Position numbers and translations under genes: made by a program
Notes under the pieces: generated by a model
The model's database searches: none
What the model saw: only the letters and a program-made list of their open reading frames with translations
Told to the model about the DNA's origin: nothing
In this document: piece by piece, positions 22,023 through 39,254 of the stretch
How positions within the stretch are numbered: the stretch's first letter is position 1
Layout: each line of letters starts with the position of its first letter
Source of the DNA: a virus
UHGV virus genome: UHGV-0143367
Strand: one strand, 5' to 3'
DNA: 39,254 nucleotides

Positions 22023-23084
22023 TTATAATTCTGTAATTTCTGAGACAGTCTGTAAGAAGCGCTCCTCTTCCAGCTCAACGCCAATTGCACGCCGGCCCAG
22101 CTGCATAGCTGCTTTGACCGTTGCCCCCGAACCCATAAAGAAGTCGGCTACCAGGTCGCCAGGGCGAGTACTGGCTGAGATGATATCGATCATCATCTCT
22201 ATCGGCTTTTCACATGGATGTTTACCGGGATAATGCTGGACTGGTGGGTACGTCCAGACGTTCGTATGCGGTACGTCCTTTGTTACCCGGAATGGGCGCC
22301 GCAGGTTTTCGTACTGCTCACGCAAATCACCGTACTGTTTAACCAGTTCTGAATACTGCCCCGATAACTCGTTGTATTCCGCTTCCAGCACGGCGTGGTC
22401 GGACAGTAAGCCAGAGGTTTTCTTCTCTTTCGCTACCCGATTAAACAACGCCTGAAGAGCCTGGTATTGTTTTTCGCTGGGCAGTTGCCATTGGCTTGAG
22501 CTAAACCAGTGGCTGCACATTTGAGTACCCGTCGCCGCGTTAATCTCTGCTGCCGAAATACCCAGGCGCTGCCGGGTAGTTCGGAAGTATTCAATCAACG
22601 GCGCAAAGACCTGGCTTTTCAGTTCCCGGCACTTCGTCGCATACCCGGCATTACCTTTTGCGAATCCCTCAGAGCCATAATGTTCAGCAAACACAATGTG
22701 CTCAGTCGCCGGGAAATACGATCTCAAATCCTCTTTCCGGCAGCCGTTCCAACGACCGCTCGGTTTGGCCCAGATGATATGGTTTAGCACGTTGAACCGC
22801 TCGCCTATCAGCAGTTCTGTGTCAGATGACAGCTTAGGACCGCAGAATACGTACAGAGAGCCAGCCGGCTTCAGCACCCGCCAGAATTCCGCCAAGCACT
22901 CATCGAGCCATGCCAGATAATCAACAGCCGTCGGCCATTGGTTATCCCACGATGCCGCCTTTACTTTGTAGTAGGGCGGGTCGGTGATGATGGCATCGAT
23001 ACTGTTGTCCGGGAGAGTTTTTATGTATGCCAGAGTATCAGCACGCACAAGAACGGCACTGTTTATATTTACAGTGTTTTCCAT
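22023..23084 (-). CDS. DNA methyltransferase, beta-class (N6-adenine or N4-cytosine), orphan
   Basis: 353 aa; DPPY catalytic motif near the N-terminus (AIITDPPYY) and FxGxG AdoMet motif near the C-terminus (FFMGSGAT); no adjacent restriction endonuclease. Confidence 0.8.
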   Translation of the reverse strand: MENTVNINSAVLVRADTLAYIKTLPDNSIDAIITDPPYYKVKAASWDNQWPTAVDYLAWLDECLAEFWRVLKPAGSLYVFCGPKLSSDTELLIGERFNVLNHIIWAKPSGRWNGCRKEDLRSYFPATEHIVFAEHYGSEGFAKGNAGYATKCRELKSQVFAPLIEYFRTTRQRLGISAAEINAATGTQMCSHWFSSSQWQLPSEKQYQALQALFNRVAKEKKTSGLLSDHAVLEAEYNELSGQYSELVKQYGDLREQYENLRRPFRVTKDVPHTNVWTYPPVQHYPGKHPCEKPIEMMIDIISASTRPGDLVADFFMGSGATVKAAMQLGRRAIGVELEEERFLQTVSEITEL

Positions 23085-24034: not shown

Positions 24035-24661
24035 TTATCGTATCGATAGGTTTTTGTATCGGATTGTTATCAATCCATATTTCCCAGAACTGATTGCAGC
24101 GGCGCCAGCGGCCAGGATGTCATCACGGTTTATCGGTAGGCCGGCGGCAAGGATTGGATGCTCCCCGGGGATAAATTCAGCAACGCAGTGGTTTTCGGTC
24201 TGCTCGTTGTCTATTTTCCCTGTCGCTGAATCCACAAAACCTACTCGGCCAACGATAAACCAGATTCGGCTGGCCAGCTGCCAGGGAAACCAGTTTTCGC
24301 CAGGACGGGCACGGAAAAGCCATTGAGAATAAGCACCACGCTCAGCCTCTACGCGCGCCTTACGGAAGAAGTTTCCCATGCCATTGTGCGGAGTGGCCGC
24401 TCGGCTGTCCTCTTTCGAGAATGGCGGGTTGGCATAAAGCGCCGGCAGTACGCCGCGACGTTTTGTTTCAGCCATCCAGTCCAGCTGCAGGCAATTATCT
24501 TCGCGGGTAAAAAACTCCGGCAGAAGATGATTTTCAGTGCTGGCGCATGCATCAACATGGCAAGGGCGCAATAGCTCGAAAAGGCCCGCGGCTATGCGCG
24601 GGTCAGTTCTCCATGTGTCTCGATGCTCAGCGGCGGTGTGGCTGCGATGATCTAAGAGCAT
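24035..24661 (-). CDS. Phage Dam-family DNA N6-adenine methyltransferase
   Basis: 208 aa; NPPF motif (LYANPPFS) preceded by a DACAS segment, arrangement of small phage Dam-family enzymes. Confidence 0.65.
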   Translation of the reverse strand: MLLDHRSHTAAEHRDTWRTDPRIAAGLFELLRPCHVDACASTENHLLPEFFTREDNCLQLDWMAETKRRGVLPALYANPPFSKEDSRAATPHNGMGNFFRKARVEAERGAYSQWLFRARPGENWFPWQLASRIWFIVGRVGFVDSATGKIDNEQTENHCVAEFIPGEHPILAAGLPINRDDILAAGAAAISSGKYGLITIRYKNLSIR

Positions 24662-26395: not shown

Positions 26396-26754
26396 CCAGC
26401 TAAATTCGCGCTGGCTATTCCATTCATGCCTGTACCTAAATGATATTTTTCACGATGCTTTCTGCAGCGAATCCATACAGGAAATGCCACTATCCAGAAG
26501 ATGAACGGCCAGACAACAATTCCTGCCAAAGCAGTGATAAGAACCGCCAGCATGAGCGGTAGCTCCCTGACTTCCGTGCCAGGGAATTCATAACAAACAT
26601 CTGCAAAAGCTGAAAAAACGGCATCGTATCTGTCGGCTGTAAAAGCCATGCAGTCCAGATAGTTAAAATCGTATCCGGTCGCCGCAGCCCATGTAGGGCG
26701 ATCGAGGAAGTGCTTAAGCGTTAGCATCCTGCCCACCACTCGGTTGATATTCAT
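26356..26754 (-). CDS. Small membrane protein (uncertain)
   Basis: 133 aa from internal ATG of ORF 26353-27099; hydrophobic stretch LPLMLAVLITALAGIVVWPFIFWIVAFPVWI; overlaps exonuclease 3' end by ~40 nt. Confidence 0.25.
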
Positions 26755-27676
26755 AAAGGCCCTGGTGGCGCTTATCGCGCGTGTTCCAGTTCTTCTTGGC
26801 GGCGTTCTCCAGCTGCTCGACGTCGCTATCATCAAACACAACATCGGTGGCCTCTTCGCCATGTGCGCCGCACTCATGACAGAAAACAACGGCGCCGGCA
26901 TACAGGCCATCCTCGCCATAGTTGGCTGGGTTCCACAAAGGTTTGTACTGGAGGCCATGCAGGTGGTGAACAAACACAGACGGCGGCCCGTAGCAGAACG
27001 GGCAGGGGGCCAGCCCTGAATCATCACTGTGGTGAAGGTCAGCGCCGCTGTCTGGAAGATGGGGATCGTTGCAGACGCTTTCCAGAACGCGGAGAACACG
27101 CTGGCAGTCGGCCAGCGAACGGTGAGCTTCAGCGCTGACAGTTACACCCTGCTGAACAACGGCCATCGACAGAGACTGTCGGACAAAGTTTCTATCCTTC
27201 ATAGAAAGCGCGCCGTACCACTGGCTGTAAGTCTCTTTCGCATCGATATGGCCAGAATGAATGCGGCTGTACATTTCCAGCATGGCCGCCGGTGCCAGAT
27301 CGTTATAAAGGCCAGTAATCAGGCAGGTCTGAGTAATCAACCGGGCATCAAATTTTGAGTTCCAGGCAAGCCACTTATGGCCGCCAATCGCGGCGACTAC
27401 CGCCGGATAAACTTCCTGCCAGGATGGGGCATCAGCAACCATTTCGTTGGTGATGTTGTTGATAGCGGTCGCAGCTGCGGGGATAGGGCGGGTCGGCTTA
27501 ACAAGCGTATCAAGCAGCACATCACCACGCATATTGATGATCGAGATTTCGATAATCTCATCATTATCTGCCATCCCGGTTGTTTCCGTATCAATAATAC
27601 GAAAATCACTTTTAAGCCATGTAGCCATTAACAGCTGTAAAATAGTCTTATGTGCATTATCCATCATTATTTCCAT
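26714..27676 (-). CDS. DnaQ-like DEDDh 3'-5' exonuclease fused to a C-terminal Lar-like zinc ribbon
   Basis: Exo I motif FRIIDTETTG near N-terminus, H-x4-D (HRSLAD) Exo III-like; C-terminal CPFCYG...CHECGA...AAKKNWNTR resembles the Lar restriction-alleviation family. Confidence 0.65.
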   Translation of the reverse strand: MEIMMDNAHKTILQLLMATWLKSDFRIIDTETTGMADNDEIIEISIINMRGDVLLDTLVKPTRPIPAAATAINNITNEMVADAPSWQEVYPAVVAAIGGHKWLAWNSKFDARLITQTCLITGLYNDLAPAAMLEMYSRIHSGHIDAKETYSQWYGALSMKDRNFVRQSLSMAVVQQGVTVSAEAHRSLADCQRVLRVLESVCNDPHLPDSGADLHHSDDSGLAPCPFCYGPPSVFVHHLHGLQYKPLWNPANYGEDGLYAGAVVFCHECGAHGEEATDVVFDDSDVEQLENAAKKNWNTRDKRHQGLYEYQPSGGQDANA

Positions 27677-30930: not shown

Positions 30931-31560
30931 ATGGAAAAACGTGGTGATTGGCTGAAGGCTCGCCGTGAAGAGCTGAAGAAGCGAAATAAATCAAAGTTCT
31001 CAGTGAGAGCTGTTGCCGAACGCATCGGTATTACCGGTGCTGGCCTCTCGCATCTCGAAAACAGCGATGCTATGCCCGCGTTAGATCTGGCTATCAAGCT
31101 GGCGCGAGAGCTGGGCCGTCCTGTTGAATGGATCTTAACCGGTGCTGGCGGGGATGTGTTCCGTGGAGTCCCTGTTATTGGTTCTACTGCTACCGGTCCC
31201 AATCTGGAAATGATAAACAGCGGTCTGGCTCAAAACTGCCGGGAATTCGTTGATATCAATGTACAGGATGCAGCCTTATACGGCCTGATGGTCGATAACG
31301 ACGTTGCAGCGCCGTATCATATCGGTGAAGTACTGATCGCAGACCCTAATCGCGAGCCGGTGACAGGGGAAGATGTGGTGGTAGTCACAAAATCTGGCAA
31401 TGATACGTTTATTAAGATGTTAGCGTCTAAACGTGATGGCAAAGTGTTTCTTGACGCGCCGAACGACAGATCTCAGCGCGTGATAATCGATCTTGACGAA
31501 ATTATTTTGATTCATCCCGTTATCTGCGTGGCTAAATCTATAGCAGTTAAGGCCAGATAG
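30931..31560 (+). CDS. cB: Prophage repressor CB (CI-like HTH-XRE with C-terminal S24/LexA-like domain)
   Basis: 209 aa; N-terminal HTH (FSVRAVAERIGITGAGLSHLEN), C-terminal beta-rich domain; divergent from cro. Confidence 0.75.
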   Translation: MEKRGDWLKARREELKKRNKSKFSVRAVAERIGITGAGLSHLENSDAMPALDLAIKLARELGRPVEWILTGAGGDVFRGVPVIGSTATGPNLEMINSGLAQNCREFVDINVQDAALYGLMVDNDVAAPYHIGEVLIADPNREPVTGEDVVVVTKSGNDTFIKMLASKRDGKVFLDAPNDRSQRVIIDLDEIILIHPVICVAKSIAVKAR

Positions 31561-31841: not shown

Positions 31842-31868
31842 CTGCGCAACTGCGCAGCGTCTTTTTTT
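31842..31868 (+). terminator. Terminator-like hairpin plus T7 run ending ~10 nt before the repA start codon
   Basis: CTGCGC-aact-GCGCAG stem followed by CGTCTTTTTTT, then GGTGA Shine-Dalgarno and ATG. Confidence 0.4.
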
Positions 31869-31878
31869 GGGTGAAATA

Positions 31879-34800
31879 ATGAATTTAACGGAATATTTTC
31901 AACACAAATTTAACTCTGACCCGTTTTCGCTGCTTGATGCAGCATCAAATGAACTGAGTGATCTCGCGAACGCTGCCGGTATCGACTGGCATAAATGCGC
32001 TGGAGATATTCAGCTTTCTGCCTCTCGCGGTTCCGCTGAAAAATTCACAAAGTATGCCCACCATGGTCCTGCCGTTACTGATCCAAAGCTGAAAGGCAAG
32101 GTTGAGATTTACTCCCGCATGGAGTGTTCTCAGGACGGTATCAAATACCCGTTCATCAACTTTGTCTGTAAAGGTGCTGACGCTGGCGTATGGAGTGGCT
32201 TCCAGTTCCTTATCTCTGAATACCGTCGATACAAAGAACAGAACGGTGGGACCGTGGTCCCACTGTCTGCGCGTGAACTGGAGCAGCGTAAACGTGCTGA
32301 GGCGCGCCGCCATGAACGTGAGCGCCAGCAGGCTATCTCTGTGTTTATGGAGTCGCAGCGCCGCGACGCTGACCTGAACGAATACCTGCAGTTCTCCGCC
32401 GCATTCGCCAAGGCACCGGCAGAAGATGGTTCATGGCCATATGCGGTGAAGAAAGGCATCAGCTCTGTTTTCTCATACTGTAACGTAAGACGCGTAACCC
32501 ATTGGGACCATGGTCCCAATTCTAAAGCGGTTAAAAAACAAACTGTTATGGCGATTCCGCTGTCGCATATTGATGACCGTCGGGAAGACCGTGAATCTCG
32601 CGTTGGGCCGATTGTTGGCTGGCAGCGAATCACCGAGAGAAACGACAAGCTGCAGACCCGCGCTGTAGATTCCGGTGACTTTGCCGGTTCGTGTCACATC
32701 ATCGGCCAGCTGCGCGGCGCAACCAGGATCTGTGTTGTTGAAGGGTTCGCGACTGGTGCCAGCGTGTTCGCTGTAGCGAAAAAACGCTTTGATGCTGTTG
32801 TTGTGGCTGTGTCAGCAAATAACGTTATCAAGGTTGTTGATCAGCTGGTCAGCCTGTACCCAGGCATGGAAATCTGGTGCGCACTGGATAACGACCAGAA
32901 ATCGGCGCGGAATGGAAAAGGCAATACCGGGTTAAGAGTCGGCATCGATGTGATGAAGAAATTCCCGCAGGTCCGCTGCACATTCCCGATTTTCGACAGC
33001 AGCGAAACCGAATTAAGCGACTTTAACGATCTCCACCAGGCGCGCGGCGCCACCGAAACCAACCGCCAGCTGTTTTCAAAACAGAACCGCCTGCAGCTGC
33101 CAGGCAATTCCTTTGATGCTGAAATGCTGTCTCTGGCCGTTGCGCCGGTTTCCGATCGCCGCGCGTTCTCGCGCCAGCTGGTACGCTGCATTGATGCCGG
33201 CATGATGCAATGCCCGTCCAAGTTATCCCCGCAGGAGCTGATCTCGCTGATAAAAATGAAGCTGGACCAGCTCGGCGCCGACAAAGCGCTGCACGGTACC
33301 GTGTATAACCGCGTTAAACGCGCCTTCAAACAGAAATGCGACAAGGCCCAGGCTTTCCGATCATTCAGCGAGCGCGTAACGAACCCGGCAATACGCCCCG
33401 ACCACATCACCTATAAGCGGTTTGAAACACCCCACATGACCAAGGAAGTGCTGGATTACATCAAAGCACTGAGCGGCCCGGTAATCGTCCGTGCCGGCAT
33501 GGGGTCGGGCAAATCCAAACACTTGCTGCGCCCTATGATGCACAGCGCGCAGCGCGGCGTTTCGGTGGCGCACCGCGTTTCGCTGATTGGTGGCCTCTGG
33601 GACATGATGACGCGTGCCGACGATGGCCGTCGCATGAATTGCGACATCCTGCACTACCAGGACCCCGGCTATCAGGAGCTGGCGCCGTATGCCAGCAAAC
33701 TGACAATTTGTATTAACTCTATCGTGAAGGGCTGCTGGCAGCCACTGATGCGCAAACACGATTTCTTTGGCCTGGATGAAGCCACCCAGGGCCTGCGCGC
33801 CACGCTTTCCGGTAAAGCGATGGCGCACCCGGTTGATGTATTCAACCGTCTTATCGACTCTATCGCGTACAGCGATGACCACGCGCTGCTGGTTGATGCA
33901 GACGCCAGCGATATCCTGGTAGACCTCTGCGAACTGGCGCTGGCCAAACGCGAACAAACAGGCCTGTCGACCTGGACACAGATCCACGTCATCGAGCTGC
34001 CGGTTGATGTGAAGTACAAAAAAGCCGATGGCACGCGCGAAGCGCGCCGCGTACTTTACACCGACACCGATCGCATCATGGTTGAAGTACTGAAAGCCGT
34101 GGCTGCCGGCGAAAAATTCCTGCTGGCCACTGACTCAACCAACTTTGCCGAACAGTTGCTACTGCAGCTGCGCGACCGCTGGCCAGAAAAGAAATGGCTT
34201 TACGTCAGCCAGGACACAAAGCCGGATCAGGAAGTTGTGGCGTTTACCGACGCGCCGAACCAGCGCGCTAAACTCTACGATGGCCTTATTTATAGCCCGG
34301 CTATCAGTTCTGGCGTATCGATCGAAGAACGGCACTTCACCCGCCATTTCGGCTGCTTCTGCGGCCAGGTAGTGCCGTCCGACGCCATTCAGATGCTGCG
34401 CCGCGACAGGACCGCCACCGAATTTATGGTCGGCCTGAACAAGCTGCCTGGCGTACGCGAAGAGAACGCCGACAACATCCGCCGTGGGTTCCTGCAGGCA
34501 CTGCTGGAAACTGCCGAGATAAACGAAGAATTTACCGACGCCATCCTGGATGGCGACCGCCTTTCCCTTGGTCTGGCGGACACCACCTATGTCCGCATGA
34601 AATTTAAAGTTGCCGCGATGGAGGCCCAGGCCAGAAACGATTTCGCCAACAACCTGATCTGCATTCTCTACGCCGATGGCTATAACGTCAGCCACTTGGC
34701 CGAAGACTCGCTGGCCAGCGAAACCGGCAAAGAACTGCGTAAGGCATCGAAAGAGCGGGTCTGGGATATGACCGTTCTGCGCCATATGGAAGTGGAAACC

Positions 34801-35868
34801 CCGGACGAAGACGAACGCGACGAACTGATGGGCAAGCGATCACTATCTGAAGATGAGCAGGCGCAACTGGCGCGCTGGGATATCGAAAAAGAGTTGATGC
34901 TGGATGTCAGCCCGGAATCTCTGAAATTCCTGCTCGATGGCGGGAAGAAGAAACTGACGCTGGCCGAACTGATGACGATGGATGAAATGACCGCCGCACG
35001 CATTGACCGTGAGCAGCAGGCTTTCACGTTCACCTACCAATTCCGCAAAGGGCCGCGTAACGAATTTGTAACGATCACCGCGCTCAACCGCGAAGCAGCT
35101 GATGCGCAGTTCGACCGCATGCAGCCAGGAATAACCGGCTACACCGTCCAAAGCCGCCCGGTGATGGAAGTAACCCAGCGTACGTACGCATCGCTGCACC
35201 GTAAGGCCGCCAGGGAGTATTTCTCCACCTGCGGTATTAACCCAGATACCGGCGCCGGTGAAGCCAGCCAGGAAGGTATGGCGGAAGCTATGGCCAAACT
35301 TATGGACCCAACCACCGCGGATCGTTTCAACAACGTCCTGCGGTTCGGTGGCTATATAAACCCTAAAGGCCGCCAGAAACGCCCCGAGACGGTTTTCAAA
35401 CAGATCTGTGAGGCATTCGGTTACGCGACTCAGAAACGCCGCCTACCGCGTTCACAGGGCCTCGGTTACGTGTGGTCAATCGTCCCCGAATCCTGGGAAT
35501 TCATTCACGGAATTCTGGCGCGTCGCGCCGAGGCATCACTGTCGTTTGTCCAGATGAAACTGGATGTGGGGGCACCGGAAGAACCGGATCTCGATTGCCG
35601 ATCAAATATAGATGTAAGATCCCAATCTGGATCTGCTGAGACGGCATTTATTGAGGCAACGCTGACGACGATTGAAGAGGCTATCGCTGCGATGCCGGTG
35701 CCATTTGCATGGCTGAGAACCGCACTGACGCCGGAAGAACTGGCACAACTCGCGACTATGCCGCCACGGTTGATACAGGCGACGGTTGCCGGGCTGTTTA
35801 TGGCTGACAATATGTGGCAACTATCAGATGGCCAATACAACGAACTGAAGCGGTTGCAGGCGGTTTAA
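31879..35868 (+). CDS. repA: Replication protein RepA (primase-helicase) of N15-type linear plasmid-prophage
   Basis: About 1329 aa from ATG 31879 (ORF track begins at upstream TTG); Walker A GMGSGKSK; size and position next to cB and telN as in N15. Confidence 0.85.
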   Translation: MNLTEYFQHKFNSDPFSLLDAASNELSDLANAAGIDWHKCAGDIQLSASRGSAEKFTKYAHHGPAVTDPKLKGKVEIYSRMECSQDGIKYPFINFVCKGADAGVWSGFQFLISEYRRYKEQNGGTVVPLSARELEQRKRAEARRHERERQQAISVFMESQRRDADLNEYLQFSAAFAKAPAEDGSWPYAVKKGISSVFSYCNVRRVTHWDHGPNSKAVKKQTVMAIPLSHIDDRREDRESRVGPIVGWQRITERNDKLQTRAVDSGDFAGSCHIIGQLRGATRICVVEGFATGASVFAVAKKRFDAVVVAVSANNVIKVVDQLVSLYPGMEIWCALDNDQKSARNGKGNTGLRVGIDVMKKFPQVRCTFPIFDSSETELSDFNDLHQARGATETNRQLFSKQNRLQLPGNSFDAEMLSLAVAPVSDRRAFSRQLVRCIDAGMMQCPSKLSPQELISLIKMKLDQLGADKALHGTVYNRVKRAFKQKCDKAQAFRSFSERVTNPAIRPDHITYKRFETPHMTKEVLDYIKALSGPVIVRAGMGSGKSKHLLRPMMHSAQRGVSVAHRVSLIGGLWDMMTRADDGRRMNCDILHYQDPGYQELAPYASKLTICINSIVKGCWQPLMRKHDFFGLDEATQGLRATLSGKAMAHPVDVFNRLIDSIAYSDDHALLVDADASDILVDLCELALAKREQTGLSTWTQIHVIELPVDVKYKKADGTREARRVLYTDTDRIMVEVLKAVAAGEKFLLATDSTNFAEQLLLQLRDRWPEKKWLYVSQDTKPDQEVVAFTDAPNQRAKLYDGLIYSPAISSGVSIEERHFTRHFGCFCGQVVPSDAIQMLRRDRTATEFMVGLNKLPGVREENADNIRRGFLQALLETAEINEEFTDAILDGDRLSLGLADTTYVRMKFKVAAMEAQARNDFANNLICILYADGYNVSHLAEDSLASETGKELRKASKERVWDMTVLRHMEVETPDEDERDELMGKRSLSEDEQAQLARWDIEKELMLDVSPESLKFLLDGGKKKLTLAELMTMDEMTAARIDREQQAFTFTYQFRKGPRNEFVTITALNREAADAQFDRMQPGITGYTVQSRPVMEVTQRTYASLHRKAAREYFSTCGINPDTGAGEASQEGMAEAMAKLMDPTTADRFNNVLRFGGYINPKGRQKRPETVFKQICEAFGYATQKRRLPRSQGLGYVWSIVPESWEFIHGILARRAEASLSFVQMKLDVGAPEEPDLDCRSNIDVRSQSGSAETAFIEATLTTIEEAIAAMPVPFAWLRTALTPEELAQLATMPPRLIQATVAGLFMADNMWQLSDGQYNELKRLQAV
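32247..32262. repeat. SopB-box-like inverted repeat TGGGACC-GT-GGTCCCA inside repA
   Basis: Direct match; encodes ...GGTVVP... in the RepA frame. Confidence 0.65.
32501..32520. repeat. SopB-box-like palindrome ATTGGGACCATGGTCCCAAT inside repA
   Basis: Perfect 20-bp palindrome; encodes ...HWDHGPN... in the RepA frame. Confidence 0.7.
35585..35640. other. Candidate replication-origin element inside the 3' end of repA: four GATC sites in 47 bp with inverted repeat AGATCC...GGATCT
   Basis: GATC at 35587, 35600, 35618, 35630; the N15 ori maps within the 3' part of repA (recalled, not verified here). Confidence 0.3.
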
Positions 35869-35878
35869 GGGGATATCT

Positions 35879-36220
35879 ATGTCGACTACTGATTTTTTGA
35901 AAACACTGGATCGTGTCCAGCTGCAGTTCTGCCGGAATAAGTGCGACGAAATGCTTCGTGCTATCCAGGAAGAACAAAAGAAGGTCGCCTGGGCGGTAAC
36001 TGATGGCTCGGTCAACTACGGCTGGTACCGAACTGAGGACTACCTTAAAGCTGTCGAATGCCTGGTACGCGAAGCTGAGAAGCGCTGGAACGAAGAGACT
36101 GAAGAAGACAAAGGCAACCCGCAAACTCGCGGCTGGCTGAACTTTTCTATTCAGGGCCAGCGCCTGCCGGCGTCCGAATACGAAGCGCTGTTTGCTGATG
36201 GCCAGTGGGGGTTAACGTGA
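35879..36220 (+). CDS. Hypothetical protein, first gene of operon downstream of repA
   Basis: 113 aa; strong Shine-Dalgarno (AAGGGGA) 10 nt after the repA stop. Confidence 0.45.
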   Translation: MSTTDFLKTLDRVQLQFCRNKCDEMLRAIQEEQKKVAWAVTDGSVNYGWYRTEDYLKAVECLVREAEKRWNEETEEDKGNPQTRGWLNFSIQGQRLPASEYEALFADGQWGLT

Positions 36221-36597
36221 TCTACAAATATGAAAACTTGTGTGAGAAAGGATTCGTTCGAATTCCCGTAAGCAGGGCTACGCATAACAAAATGCTGCCA
36301 AACTGCAAGCAACGATTTGGAGCAAAAATTGAGTATTACTTCGAGCCAGAATCTCAGATATTCGAGGCACAGTATTTCACTTCGGCATGGATGAAGGTTT
36401 TGCTCATCGTTGTCATGTTTCTTCCTGCAATCGTCATGCAGGGTGTTCCCAGAACTATTCGTGACACTGGCGATTTAATTCACCAACGGGAAAGAGGGAA
36501 ATTTTCGTCTGATAGATGGTTTTTGAAACGTGAAAAGACGACAGATGGCGCACTTGAAAGTTATATCGACCAGAAACTACGTGAGGTAGGGGCATGA
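36205..36597 (+). CDS. Hypothetical membrane protein (non-ATG start)
   Basis: GTG start at 36205 or 36217 overlapping the upstream stop; one transmembrane helix (WMKVLLIVVMFLPAIVMQGV). Confidence 0.4.
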   Translation: MGVNVIYKYENLCEKGFVRIPVSRATHNKMLPNCKQRFGAKIEYYFEPESQIFEAQYFTSAWMKVLLIVVMFLPAIVMQGVPRTIRDTGDLIHQRERGKFSSDRWFLKREKTTDGALESYIDQKLREVGA

Positions 36598-36977
36598 TTG
36601 ATATTAACGTAAAAAAGCTAACTGACTACGATCTGGATGAGCTTAAGCAAGATATTGCACGAGAAATTGAACGCCGCGCCAGTGGCCCGACCCGCGTCGT
36701 TTATGTGGTGACTGAGTTTGGAGAGCATCGGGCCTTTGCTGATTTTCGCTGCGCGGCGATCTGCTTTTCTGACATAGCTCAATCTGTTCTGGAAGATGCA
36801 GGGACCAAAGAAGGAACGGAAATGTTTTATATGAATAAAGGTACCCTGCTTTATGGTATCAGACCTGTAGAAATGACGCTGAATGACTTTGAGTTGAAAG
36901 TTGAGCAGAAGTATTTCGACGATGTGTGCTACGAAAAGCGGCTGCAGGAAATGTTTCCAGAAACGGAGCTTAAATAA
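36594..36977 (+). CDS. Hypothetical protein
   Basis: 127 aa; ATGA overlap with upstream stop indicates translational coupling. Confidence 0.45.
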   Translation: MIDINVKKLTDYDLDELKQDIAREIERRASGPTRVVYVVTEFGEHRAFADFRCAAICFSDIAQSVLEDAGTKEGTEMFYMNKGTLLYGIRPVEMTLNDFELKVEQKYFDDVCYEKRLQEMFPETELK

Positions 36978-37111
36978 TTATTTATCGCAGAGGATGAACG
37001 AGGAAATTTTCGCAAAACATCCGGTAGAAATATTGGTGACAGTTTTCGGCATATAATTCAGCCGGATGCCGTTAGAGGTTCGTCCCTACGGGCTGGATAG
37101 GTCGGTTGTAA

Positions 37112-37133
37112 AACCGGGACCACGGTCCCGGTT
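37112..37133. repeat. SopB-box variant AACCGGGACC-AC-GGTCCCGGTT
   Basis: 10-bp arms around an AC spacer; inner arms GGGACC/GGTCCC as in the other copies, outer position differs (C/G instead of T/A); convergent intergenic region. Confidence 0.55.
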
Positions 37134-37140
37134 ATGTGAA

Positions 37141-39042
37141 TTAATTTTCTGGGAAATACGCAAACCATGCTGATTTCATGGCACTGCTGATACTATCCGC
37201 CGCGCCACTCCAGGCGTATAGCTGCCCCTTGTATTTGAAACGGATCGTCCAGCTGCCGTCGTCACTACGAACGGGCGCGGAGAAGCGTGGACGAGTGTCT
37301 ATTGGTACTGGTTTTTCCTCTTCGGCCTCGGCGGTCACGCCATCTTCTCGGCCTTCCTCTTCAGCTTCCAGCGCCTGGGTATCGTCACTGGTTTCCTCTC
37401 TATCGGCACCGCTATCGCCAGCGAGGTCGTCTTCACCATCCAGTTCGTCAGAGGTTATGACAATAGAGGGCGCATCTGCATTGTTAATCGTACTGCTCAT
37501 AGCCAGCGCCTCAGCAACAAAATCAAGATACCGGCGAACTAGCGTCGGGTTAAATCCAGCATCTCGTAATATTTTTGTGTTGATGACGATATCAGCTGAT
37601 TCCTCCACCAGCCGCTTTGTTGTTTCATGAATACGGATACCGGCATCGCCCCTGGCGAAGCCAGGCATTTGGTCGTCAAGCGCTTGTAGAGCAGCGAGGC
37701 GCTTATTTTCAATCCCCGTTTCCGGGCGCCAGCTGCGTGAGAAATTATGCAGTTTGAACTGTTTGTAGTGCAGCTGCGTATTTTCGTCGTCATGCCCCAG
37801 GATTTCAGAGAAAAAGACGTCCTCATCAACGTTTTTCCAGCGCGGGTCGTAGCGGAAAAACGCCTCATAGGTGATACGCGCATAAATTGCGCGCGTGTCT
37901 TTGAATGTTCGGCGGTCGTCGCCGAAGAACAGCTTCGCGTGCTGGTTAAATGTGTTACCAAGAATTGATGCGATGCGCACATTTGCGGCCCGGTAGCTAT
38001 CATCGTTCAACAGAGATCTGATTTCGTCAAAATCAGCCGCTGCGGGGCAACTTCTCAGTTCATTTAAACGTTGAACGAACAGGGCCGGGTCGCACAGCAC
38101 ATAAATTTTACGCCCCTTATCCTCGCCGGTTCGTTTTTTGGCCTGCCCGTAGAAAATAACTTCATACTTGCCGGTAACCTCAAATTCTCCCTGAACCATC
38201 ACCTCAATCAATCGACGCCCGGATACGGCTGCTAGCGCGAACGCCAGCGGCGCCATATCCTTACGTTGCGTGATAAGTGATGGTTCAAACGCCTTGTAGA
38301 TCTGCTCGGTCACAGCCTGCATATATTTGGGGTAGTCCAAGAGTACAGTTGACCGTTTCTTCTCGCTGAGCACCTCGCCCCAGCGCTGCTGTATCGATGA
38401 GCGTTCTGCCGGACTCAACTGCAGGTGATACAGAATTTCATGGTTGATTTTCAGGCCGTTCAGATCATCCAACAAGCGGGTTCCCTGTTGGAACGCGGCA
38501 TGCATTTCGGTTTCGACCGACTTCCAGTCTTGGCTGGTCAACGCGTTAAGATAGATGCTCCAGGCAGGGTATTTTTTTGCCAGGCGCGTCAATTTTTTCT
38601 CCGCAGCCGGTCCGAACTTCATACCCGAAAGCACCTCCGCCAGCGGCATAATTTCCTTCAGTTGGCCCTGTAGATTGCCGTATGCCTGACGAATATCTGC
38701 CGCAGGCATAGATTGCCACGCCTGTAATTCAGCACTGTAGGCGGGGTATTTTGCCGCTAACTTTTCAATGCTGCTGGTGAAGTGATGGTGCAAACGGTCG
38801 TCGAACTGTTTACGAATACGGGTCATATACGCGTTATAAGTATTGGCTGTAATGCGTTTCTTCAAACCGTTACCACGGAACTTCCTTTTATCTAAAAATA
38901 GCGCGTTTTTAACACGTGTAGCCGCAGCCTTATATTTTCGTGTCTTATCTCCCTGTGGGATGTCGGACGCTTCGATAGCGTCAACGTCCGCCACCAAATC
39001 AGAGATGATTTTACCAATTCCGCCATCGCCTAGCTTCGCCAT
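37141..39042 (-). CDS. telN: Protelomerase (telomere resolvase) TelN
   Basis: 633 aa; long blocks match N15 TelN as recalled (QGDKT, NALF.DKRKFRG.GL.KRITAN, HLQLSPAER.SIQQRW, MAPLAFALAAVSGRR, WKNVDEDVFF.EILGHDDENTQLHYKQFKL.NFSR.WRPE, MPGFARGDAG); acidic C-terminal tail; GAGGGGGG Shine-Dalgarno. Confidence 0.95.
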   Translation of the reverse strand: MAKLGDGGIGKIISDLVADVDAIEASDIPQGDKTRKYKAAATRVKNALFLDKRKFRGNGLKKRITANTYNAYMTRIRKQFDDRLHHHFTSSIEKLAAKYPAYSAELQAWQSMPAADIRQAYGNLQGQLKEIMPLAEVLSGMKFGPAAEKKLTRLAKKYPAWSIYLNALTSQDWKSVETEMHAAFQQGTRLLDDLNGLKINHEILYHLQLSPAERSSIQQRWGEVLSEKKRSTVLLDYPKYMQAVTEQIYKAFEPSLITQRKDMAPLAFALAAVSGRRLIEVMVQGEFEVTGKYEVIFYGQAKKRTGEDKGRKIYVLCDPALFVQRLNELRSCPAAADFDEIRSLLNDDSYRAANVRIASILGNTFNQHAKLFFGDDRRTFKDTRAIYARITYEAFFRYDPRWKNVDEDVFFSEILGHDDENTQLHYKQFKLHNFSRSWRPETGIENKRLAALQALDDQMPGFARGDAGIRIHETTKRLVEESADIVINTKILRDAGFNPTLVRRYLDFVAEALAMSSTINNADAPSIVITSDELDGEDDLAGDSGADREETSDDTQALEAEEEGREDGVTAEAEEEKPVPIDTRPRFSAPVRSDDGSWTIRFKYKGQLYAWSGAADSISSAMKSAWFAYFPEN

Positions 39043-39054
39043 GTGCCCCCCTCA

Positions 39055-39176
39055 TTATCGTAACAATATGCGCAAACATTACACCTAAAAGGCTAAAAAT
39101 CAACCTATAAATCATCGTAACATAATTCTAATTATGTGTAAATAATTATCGTAACTGTTAATTAATTTATCGTAAC
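39055..39176 (+). repeat. Four direct copies of ATCGTAAC (mostly TTATCGTAAC) between the telN start and the telomere palindrome; inverted copy GTTACG at 39193-39198
   Basis: Exact 8-mer at 39057, 39114, 39148, 39169 in an AT-rich stretch; candidate TelN occupancy/regulatory repeats. Confidence 0.55.
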
Positions 39177-39200
39177 ATCATTTGCATATACTGTTACGTT

Positions 39201-39254
39201 AAACGACACACATTATTAAATATACGCGCGTATATTTAATAATGTGTGTCGTTT
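39201..39254. repeat. Telomere resolution site (telRL-like): perfect 54-bp palindrome centred on TATACGCGCGTATA
   Basis: AAACGACACACATTATTAAATATACGC|GCGTATATTTAATAATGTGTGTCGTTT is its own reverse complement; central (CG)3 in TATA context resembles the N15 telO core; located ~160 bp upstream of the telN start. Confidence 0.85.

Follow-up and report, generated by a model that had tools for sequence, protein, structure and literature searches.

The sequence studied here, UHGV virus genome UHGV-0143367 (39,254 nucleotides (nt), referred to throughout as the window), is one arm of an N15/PY54-like telomere phage-plasmid, that is, a linear plasmid-prophage, and its lineage was present on at least 24 contigs. 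Our subject is a block of three small open reading frames (ORF1, ORF2, and ORF3) located between the replication gene repA and the protelomerase gene telN. All three are genuine genes of recognizable phage families; they assort independently of one another in related elements, are absent from many of those elements, and also occur outside plasmid-prophages. The features of the locus are as follows (aa, amino acids):

30931–31560, + strand: cB/cI-like repressor gene, upstream of repA
31867–35868, + strand: repA, replication gene, 1333 aa, taken from the ORF list and identified by homology to telomere-phage RepA
35879–36220, + strand: ORF1, 113 aa, with an ATG start and the Shine-Dalgarno sequence AAGGGG upstream
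36217–36597, + strand: ORF2, 126 aa from the GTG at 36217; the longest possible ORF begins at 36205
36594–36977, + strand: ORF3, 127 aa
ORF3 stop to telN stop: spacer of 163 nt
37112–37133, unstranded: perfect 22-bp palindrome AACCGGGACCACGGTCCCGGTT, in the spacer between the convergent repA unit and telN
37141–39042, − strand: telN, protelomerase, 633 aa, convergent with the three-ORF block

RepA was 51–84% identical to the RepA proteins of N15, phiKO2, PY54, and related loci, and TelN was 55–57% identical to TelN of N15 and phiKO2; an identical TelN protein carries the TelK/ResT Pfam domains. The initial annotation of this DNA had described three ORFs that follow repA directly, with overlapping stop and start codons. 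Its coordinates, gene sizes, GTG start, and overlaps between the ORFs were all confirmed, the stop of ORF1 and start of ORF2 sharing GTGA (36217–36220) and the stop of ORF2 and start of ORF3 sharing ATGA (36594–36597). The overlap extended to repA and ORF1 was an error: the repA stop (35868) is separated from the ATG of ORF1 (35879) by a gap of 10 nt, in which neither a terminator nor a promoter consensus was found.

Compared with relatives of 67–90% identity, the ratio of non-synonymous to synonymous substitution rates (dN/dS) lay between 0.07 and 0.20 for all three ORFs (0.07–0.2 for ORF1; 0.12–0.15 for ORF2), a sign of purifying selection. Because of these ratios, and because each ORF matched a PHROG family, the three were accepted as genes and not chance frames. 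The GTG start of ORF2 was independently supported, since the genes called for an identical element, from NCBI assembly GCA_032558115.1, include the 126-aa product (the calls of six other contigs skip it) and since relatives have an ATG or GTG at the homologous position, 2 nt past the ORF1 stop. The GC content was 55% in repA and 53% in ORF1 but fell to 43% in ORF2 and 44.5% in ORF3; the low values of the last two genes relative to repA are a signature of imported cargo.

The spacer beyond ORF3 was about 77% conserved at the DNA level in two related loci (L015 and L016). Between ORF3 and the palindrome it contains a further ORF of 20 codons (MNEEIFAKHPVEILVTVFGI; 36994–37056, + strand), which is probably untranslated because the GAGG ahead of it directly touches its ATG.

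Protein families of ORF1, ORF2, and ORF3

That nothing in these proteins is diagnostic of function, as the initial annotation had it, was borne out; that they are unrecognizable was not, for they belong to the N15 gp35 family (ORF1), phrog_15458 (ORF2), and the DUF5448/EaF family (ORF3). The remote-homology searches and structure prediction it had proposed yielded these families, a link between ORF1 and ORF3, and AlphaFold2 models of both, and no functional family. Comparison of the three proteins by sequence with PADLOC, NCBIfam, and the PDB gave nothing meaningful; matches to 'engineered protein' entries of the PDB had zero qualifying stretches and were dismissed as compositional.

ORF1 matched phrog_10878 with an E value of 6.3e-41 (ORF1 residues 1–107, profile positions 1–104 of 104). 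It was 65.5% identical to N15 gp35 over 97% of the query, 87% identical to gp49 of the Klebsiella phage NAR688, and 33% identical to PY54 ORF35. The protein is predicted to be acidic (pI 4.8), soluble, and of alpha/beta type, and its AlphaFold2 model had a mean pLDDT of 88. A search for the family returned 188 cluster representatives at E ≤ 1e-3. One homologue belongs to the Vequintavirinae phage ChuuTotoro, which has no TelN; there its neighbours are small hypothetical genes, and a DNA ligase gene has it three genes upstream. The N-terminal extensions of about 100 aa seen in some members of the family matched no Pfam family, and a TPR protein (P0214, 14 stretches) among the ORF1 profile matches was dismissed as a motif coincidence.

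ORF3 matched Pfam DUF5448 (PF17526) at 60.2 bits, against a gathering threshold of 25 bits, over profile positions 2–114 of 118, and matched phrog_6018 with an E value of 1.6e-47. It was 71% identical to phiKO2 gp33, 38% identical to P22 EaF (over 86% of its length), and 36% identical to PY54 ORF33, and N15 gp34 fell into the same protein cluster. Like ORF1 it is predicted to be an acidic alpha/beta protein (pI 4.65; AlphaFold2 mean pLDDT 82). Its counterpart in P22, an integrating phage without TelN, is eaF, one of the ea genes clustered downstream of erf/abc, whereas ORF3 sits behind a plasmid replication gene.

ORF1 and ORF3 are likely remote, diverged paralogues within one superfamily of small acidic alpha/beta proteins, a new link drawn from profile comparison. 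The ORF1 profile was drawn from the search that gave the 188 representatives, and none of its 70 aligned members match DUF5448; the ORF3 profile was broadened with P22 EaF, PY54 ORF33, and N15 gp34. Aligned with hhalign, these diverse, chimera-free profiles gave a probability of 94.7% (E 6e-8) over 93 collinear columns, pairing ORF1 residues 7–102 with ORF3 residues 6–100. Neighbouring, unrelated families scored 0.3% or less in the same set-up. The predicted models of the two proteins also have the same fold order.

The score depended on how the alignments were built. A first comparison gave 94%, but was inflated by chimeric proteins in the ORF3 alignment, of the phiKO2 gp33 type, with an ORF1-like N-terminus; with the chimeras removed and shallow profiles it fell to 3%, and with diverse chimera-free profiles it rose to 63% and then to 94.7%. 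The chimeras are DUF5448 proteins in which an ORF1-type N-terminus is joined in frame with an EaF core, as in phiKO2 gp33 (L002, 5495–6043) and P0152; P0150 and P0113–P0147 belong to the same group. Their ORF1/gp35-type N-terminus reads MTSTTDCLNKLD.... P0152 also has an ORF1-type C-terminus, so that its EaF core is enclosed on both sides, and in many proteins of the group about 45 aa (DLKPLPVEPAGWQLVPKEIT...) are added at the C-terminus.

ORF2 matched phrog_15458 (E 2.5e-13, residues 6–111) and had no match in a Pfam search. The claim that it is a membrane protein was upheld: it is basic (pI 9.3), with a single central hydrophobic helix at residues 59–77 (Kyte-Doolittle maximum 2.23 in a 19-residue window), and the position of this segment is kept in homologues of 21–95% identity. 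Homologues occur in Swiduovirus CF-SP1 and its relatives, which have no TelN, among co-oriented hypothetical genes. A relationship between ORF2 and the N15 gp33 family of membrane proteins was considered and rejected, the hhalign probability being 0.9%.

Independent assortment across repA-telN intervals

From 69 loci with TelN and the C-terminus of RepA we obtained 59 distinct repA-telN intervals, ranging in size from 296 bp to 6 kb. The three families were distributed among them as follows:

none of ORF1, ORF2, and ORF3: 19 of 59
ORF1 and ORF2: 11 of 59
ORF1 and ORF3: 10 of 59
ORF1 only: 9 of 59
ORF3 only: 6 of 59
ORF2 and ORF3, with ORF3 before ORF2: 2 of 59
ORF2 only: 1 of 59
all three: only the window's lineage

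Related elements lacking the genes thus exist in number, and an obligate co-occurrence of partners is contradicted by the finding of each gene alone and of every pair. ORF2 and ORF3 were found in either order, and close relatives by RepA (82–84% identity) carry ORF1 alone, ORF1 with ORF3, ORF3 followed by ORF2, or none of the three. The ORF1 family, present in 31 intervals, was always the first or second gene after repA. ORF2 and the N15 gp33/PY54 ORF34 family, both small single-helix membrane proteins, take the same place, and no interval had both. A third small membrane protein, of cluster c6 (NAR688 gp48), or gp36 alternates in the slot right after repA. ORF2 lay directly behind an ORF1- or ORF3-family gene in 14 of the 15 distinct intervals that carry it. 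Nor does a gp35/EaF-type protein always have a membrane protein as its downstream partner: the pairing was not seen in ChuuTotoro, CF-SP1, or P22. The list of TelN-bearing phages excludes these three phages, and all three families are thus found outside protelomerase phages as well.

The best-known telomere phages have blocks in the same place and on the same strand. In N15 the order is repA-gp36-gp35-gp34-gp33, then the antirepressor locus, then telN; in PY54, repA is followed by three ORFs (ORF35-ORF34-ORF33, of which ORF35 resembles ORF1 and ORF33 resembles ORF3) and telN. These N15 genes 36–33 and the PY54 block are uncharacterized. The window resembles PY54 in having three genes and no antirepressor locus between repA and telN, and differs from N15 in having no gp36- or c6-type gene ahead of ORF1. 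Its middle gene is of the ORF2 family, unrelated to the gp33-family membrane protein of N15, PY54, and phiKO2.

In six contigs (L065, L042, L043, L049, L068, and L071) the best ORF1-family match by tblastn was not within the repA-telN interval but several kb upstream of telN, accompanied by ORF3 in L065 and by ORF2 in L049. At least some of these contigs are far longer than one phage genome, and duplication or concatenation may be involved. Seven other loci, from Erwinia and other relatives (L005, L022, L033, L039, L041, L058, and L059), have in the slot a protein of about 125 aa that starts MGFPSPAQDY and that presumably resembles a pre-cleaved UmuD'-type S24 peptidase domain.

Palindromic boxes, the terminal palindrome, and other features of the window

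The block was said to end at a variant SopB box, and the variant box is real. The palindrome AACCGGGACCACGGTCCCGGTT is 135 nt past the end of ORF3, with only 8 nt between it and the stop of telN. It contains a 14-nt core, GGGACCACGGTCCC, which, with two or fewer mismatches allowed, is found at 10 sites in the window, where chance would give 0.28 matches:

696, 4672, 11203, 16902, 19843, 23320, 29047, 32248, 32504, and 37116 (window positions): 14-nt cores GGGACC(A/G)(C/T)GGTCCC, mostly with T...A flanks

Eight of the nine other sites read T-GGGACC-AY/GT-GGTCCC-A; the site at 37116 has C/G flanks in place of T/A. As RNA the palindrome gives a 9-bp GC hairpin; the tail behind it is UUUUAC when read on the telN strand and is poorer on the repA strand. 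In the phiKO2 record, palindromes of this type (GTGCGACCACGGTCGCAC) bear the label of putative partition sites, one copy lying inside repA; two cores lie inside repA of the window, which has ten cores in all as compared with two annotated partition sites in the 13-kb stretch of phiKO2 examined. We take the 14-nt core to be that of the F-plasmid sopC repeat, in which case the dispersed boxes are presumably SopB-binding centromere boxes.

The window ends in a further palindrome:

39201–39254, centred at 39227/39228: perfect 54-bp palindrome of telRL/tos type, core TATACGCGCGTATA, ending exactly at the window edge

At 39055–39203, upstream of telN, TTATCGTAAC is repeated several times, in either orientation. 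In contig L081 the assembly does not stop at the telRL-type point but runs on into a second, inverted telN. Elsewhere in the window, a gene at 26714–27676 (− strand) encodes a 320-aa protein resembling a DNA polymerase exonuclease subunit, whose C-terminal residues 219–316 matched, at E 5.9e-10, a PHROG of Lar-like restriction alleviation; genes for two DNA methyltransferases are found near it (22023–23084 and 24035–24661).

Role of the three genes

We consider it probable, though well short of certain, that the block is a variable accessory tail of the repA unit, made up of three separately exchangeable, non-essential genes that represent host- or competitor-directed cargo. ORF1–ORF3 would probably share the transcript of repA and be translated in a coupled manner, co-transcription being suggested by the gap of 10 nt, the overlaps between stop and start codons, and the lack of promoter or terminator consensus; the transcript would most likely end in the 163-nt spacer before telN, which contains the palindrome hairpin. 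The products would take no part in replication, telomere resolution, partition, or addiction, and would most likely be cargo of the kind found among phage early or 'ea' genes. The soluble pair, ORF1 and ORF3, may bind a protein of the host or of a rival phage, and ORF2 may work at the inner membrane, for example in an exclusion-type function. These expectations were reached by analogy with the P22 ea cluster, with the co-oriented runs of small genes in phages without TelN, and with the lysogen-expressed cargo slot of NAR688 described below. We infer likewise that the genes are dispensable in the window's own element.

Several points weigh against this reading. The annotated homologues assign no activity to the three families, and the case for co-transcription with repA is one of spacing and missing consensus signals. 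The position of ORF1, directly behind repA or one small gene later in about half of the relatives, would fit a role linked to replication. The near-constant placement of ORF2 behind an ORF1- or ORF3-family gene means that the two may form a functional pair within telomere phages. Finally, the nine phage proteins detected in the proteome of the NAR688 lysogen did not include gp49, the homologue of ORF1, which is a weak negative for expression in lysogeny; RepA was missing too. (The 'gp35' listed in that proteome was briefly taken for an ORF1 homologue, but is NAR688's own number for a RelE/ParE toxin.)

The initial annotation had favoured a three-gene unit for plasmid maintenance, exclusion, or addiction. 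For superinfection exclusion, a class that no sequence family defines, the one feature in agreement is the predicted membrane location of ORF2. As a module whose three products stabilize the linear plasmid or kill plasmid-free cells, the block would be well placed, lying between repA and telN beside a sopC-like box, and its make-up, tightly coupled genes with a small membrane protein between two small soluble ones, is not out of keeping with such a role. However, the partners do not co-vary, all three are missing from 19 of the 59 intervals, the repA-telN distance is below 400 bp in some relatives, all three families occur in non-plasmid phages, and searches of Pfam, NCBIfam, and PADLOC with the three proteins gave no match to a toxin-antitoxin, partition, or defence family. 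Moreover, repA alone reportedly supports circular replication, and telN, repA, and telRL are all that linear replication is reported to need (PMC10612081); a minimal N15-derived linear vector is stably kept, via a centromere inside repA, when the host strain provides TelN and SopAB (PMC2847241). Because of the independent assortment, the homologues in TelN-less phages, and the reported sufficiency of repA, telN, and telRL, a core role in maintenance or addiction is very improbable and is the least supported of the alternatives. A role for ORF1, and perhaps ORF3, as a replication-accessory factor working with RepA or with host replication proteins is unlikely, though it has points in its favour: ORF1 is the commonest gene directly downstream of repA (31 of 59 intervals, including N15, PY54, and NAR688), and its ChuuTotoro homologue lies near a DNA ligase gene. 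Yet ORF1 is missing from 28 of the 59 intervals, including those of the close RepA relatives L012, L017, and L020; in L065 and a few other contigs its best match lies outside the interval; and repA reportedly needs no partner for circular replication (PMC10612081).

Two further alternatives follow from what other telomere phages carry in this interval, which is known as a variable locus in linear plasmid-like phages (PMC10432266). Modules that control lysis and lysogeny occur there, such as the immA antirepressor of N15, VqmA-Qtip of VP882, and modules of a transcription factor and a small ORF (TF-smORF; PMC10432266). These modules lie in the same place, in the stretch where repA and telN converge, and a cI-like repressor gene precedes repA; proteins as small and acidic as those of the window might in principle act as antirepressors. 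N15 and phiKO2 have an icd/antA/antB locus between repA and telN, whereas the PY54 interval lacks it, icd being annotated upstream of tel instead. In the interval of the window we found no member of the icd/antA/antB clusters and no DNA-binding Pfam domain, and an Rfam scan of the whole 39-kb window returned no family, hence no C4-type RNA. Unlike the divergent TF-smORF pairs, the genes of the window are co-oriented with repA and mutually coupled, with no transcription factor and no counter-oriented small ORF. N15 and its relatives, in addition, have gp35/EaF genes beside a complete immA locus, so these genes are no substitute for immA. We therefore give this alternative only a slim chance; the secondary immunity region of the window's element must either sit on its other arm or be missing altogether.

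Equally slim is the chance that ORF2, alone or together with ORF3, forms a cassette for bacteriocin immunity or for some other benefit to the lysogen. In the Klebsiella phage NAR688, the repA-telN locus holds a telocin A/ImmA cassette, both proteins of which were found in the lysogen proteome (PMC12042878). The order there is RepA, the 86-aa membrane protein gp48, the ORF1 homologue gp49, ImmA, TelA (on the opposite strand), icd/antA/antB, and TelN, and ORF2 and ORF3 occupy exactly the place of this cargo, right behind the ORF1 homologue (PMC12042878). Their low, foreign-looking GC content and the predicted membrane location of ORF2 would agree with such a function. However, ImmA has 181 aa and four helices where ORF2 has a single hydrophobic helix and falls outside the ImmA cluster (c60), and the interval of the window has no toxin gene, nor any ORF of a size comparable to TelA (377 aa); in Swiduovirus, the ORF2 homologues lie among co-oriented hypothetical genes. 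With neither a bacteriocin gene nor a four-helix immunity protein, the window is of the 'Tel0' type in the terms of PMC12042878.

Returning to the cargo reading, a bolder version of it is that the ORF1/ORF3 superfamily is widespread and consists of inhibitors of host immunity or host factors, retained as tandem, diverged paralogues where the repA operon of telomere phages ends, and that alternative small membrane proteins (of the ORF2 or the gp33 family) paired with them there provide exclusion, which would make the block an anti-defence and exclusion island on the replication transcript. We regard this version as unlikely. If the soluble pair were indeed inhibitors of host immunity, a function would be gained for a family found in telomere phages, P22-like phages, and large virulent phages.

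The three genes are further members of known, uncharacterized families in an already known variable locus. What the comparison adds is that one superfamily can take in both the DUF5448/EaF family and proteins of the N15 gp35 type, and that a locus resembling part of the replication and telomere core would be a cargo slot, whose genes can be treated as dispensable and exchangeable by annotators and by those who engineer N15-type vectors. The gene-by-gene map of assortment in the repA-telN slot marks where lysogen-expressed cargo, such as the telocins, inserts.

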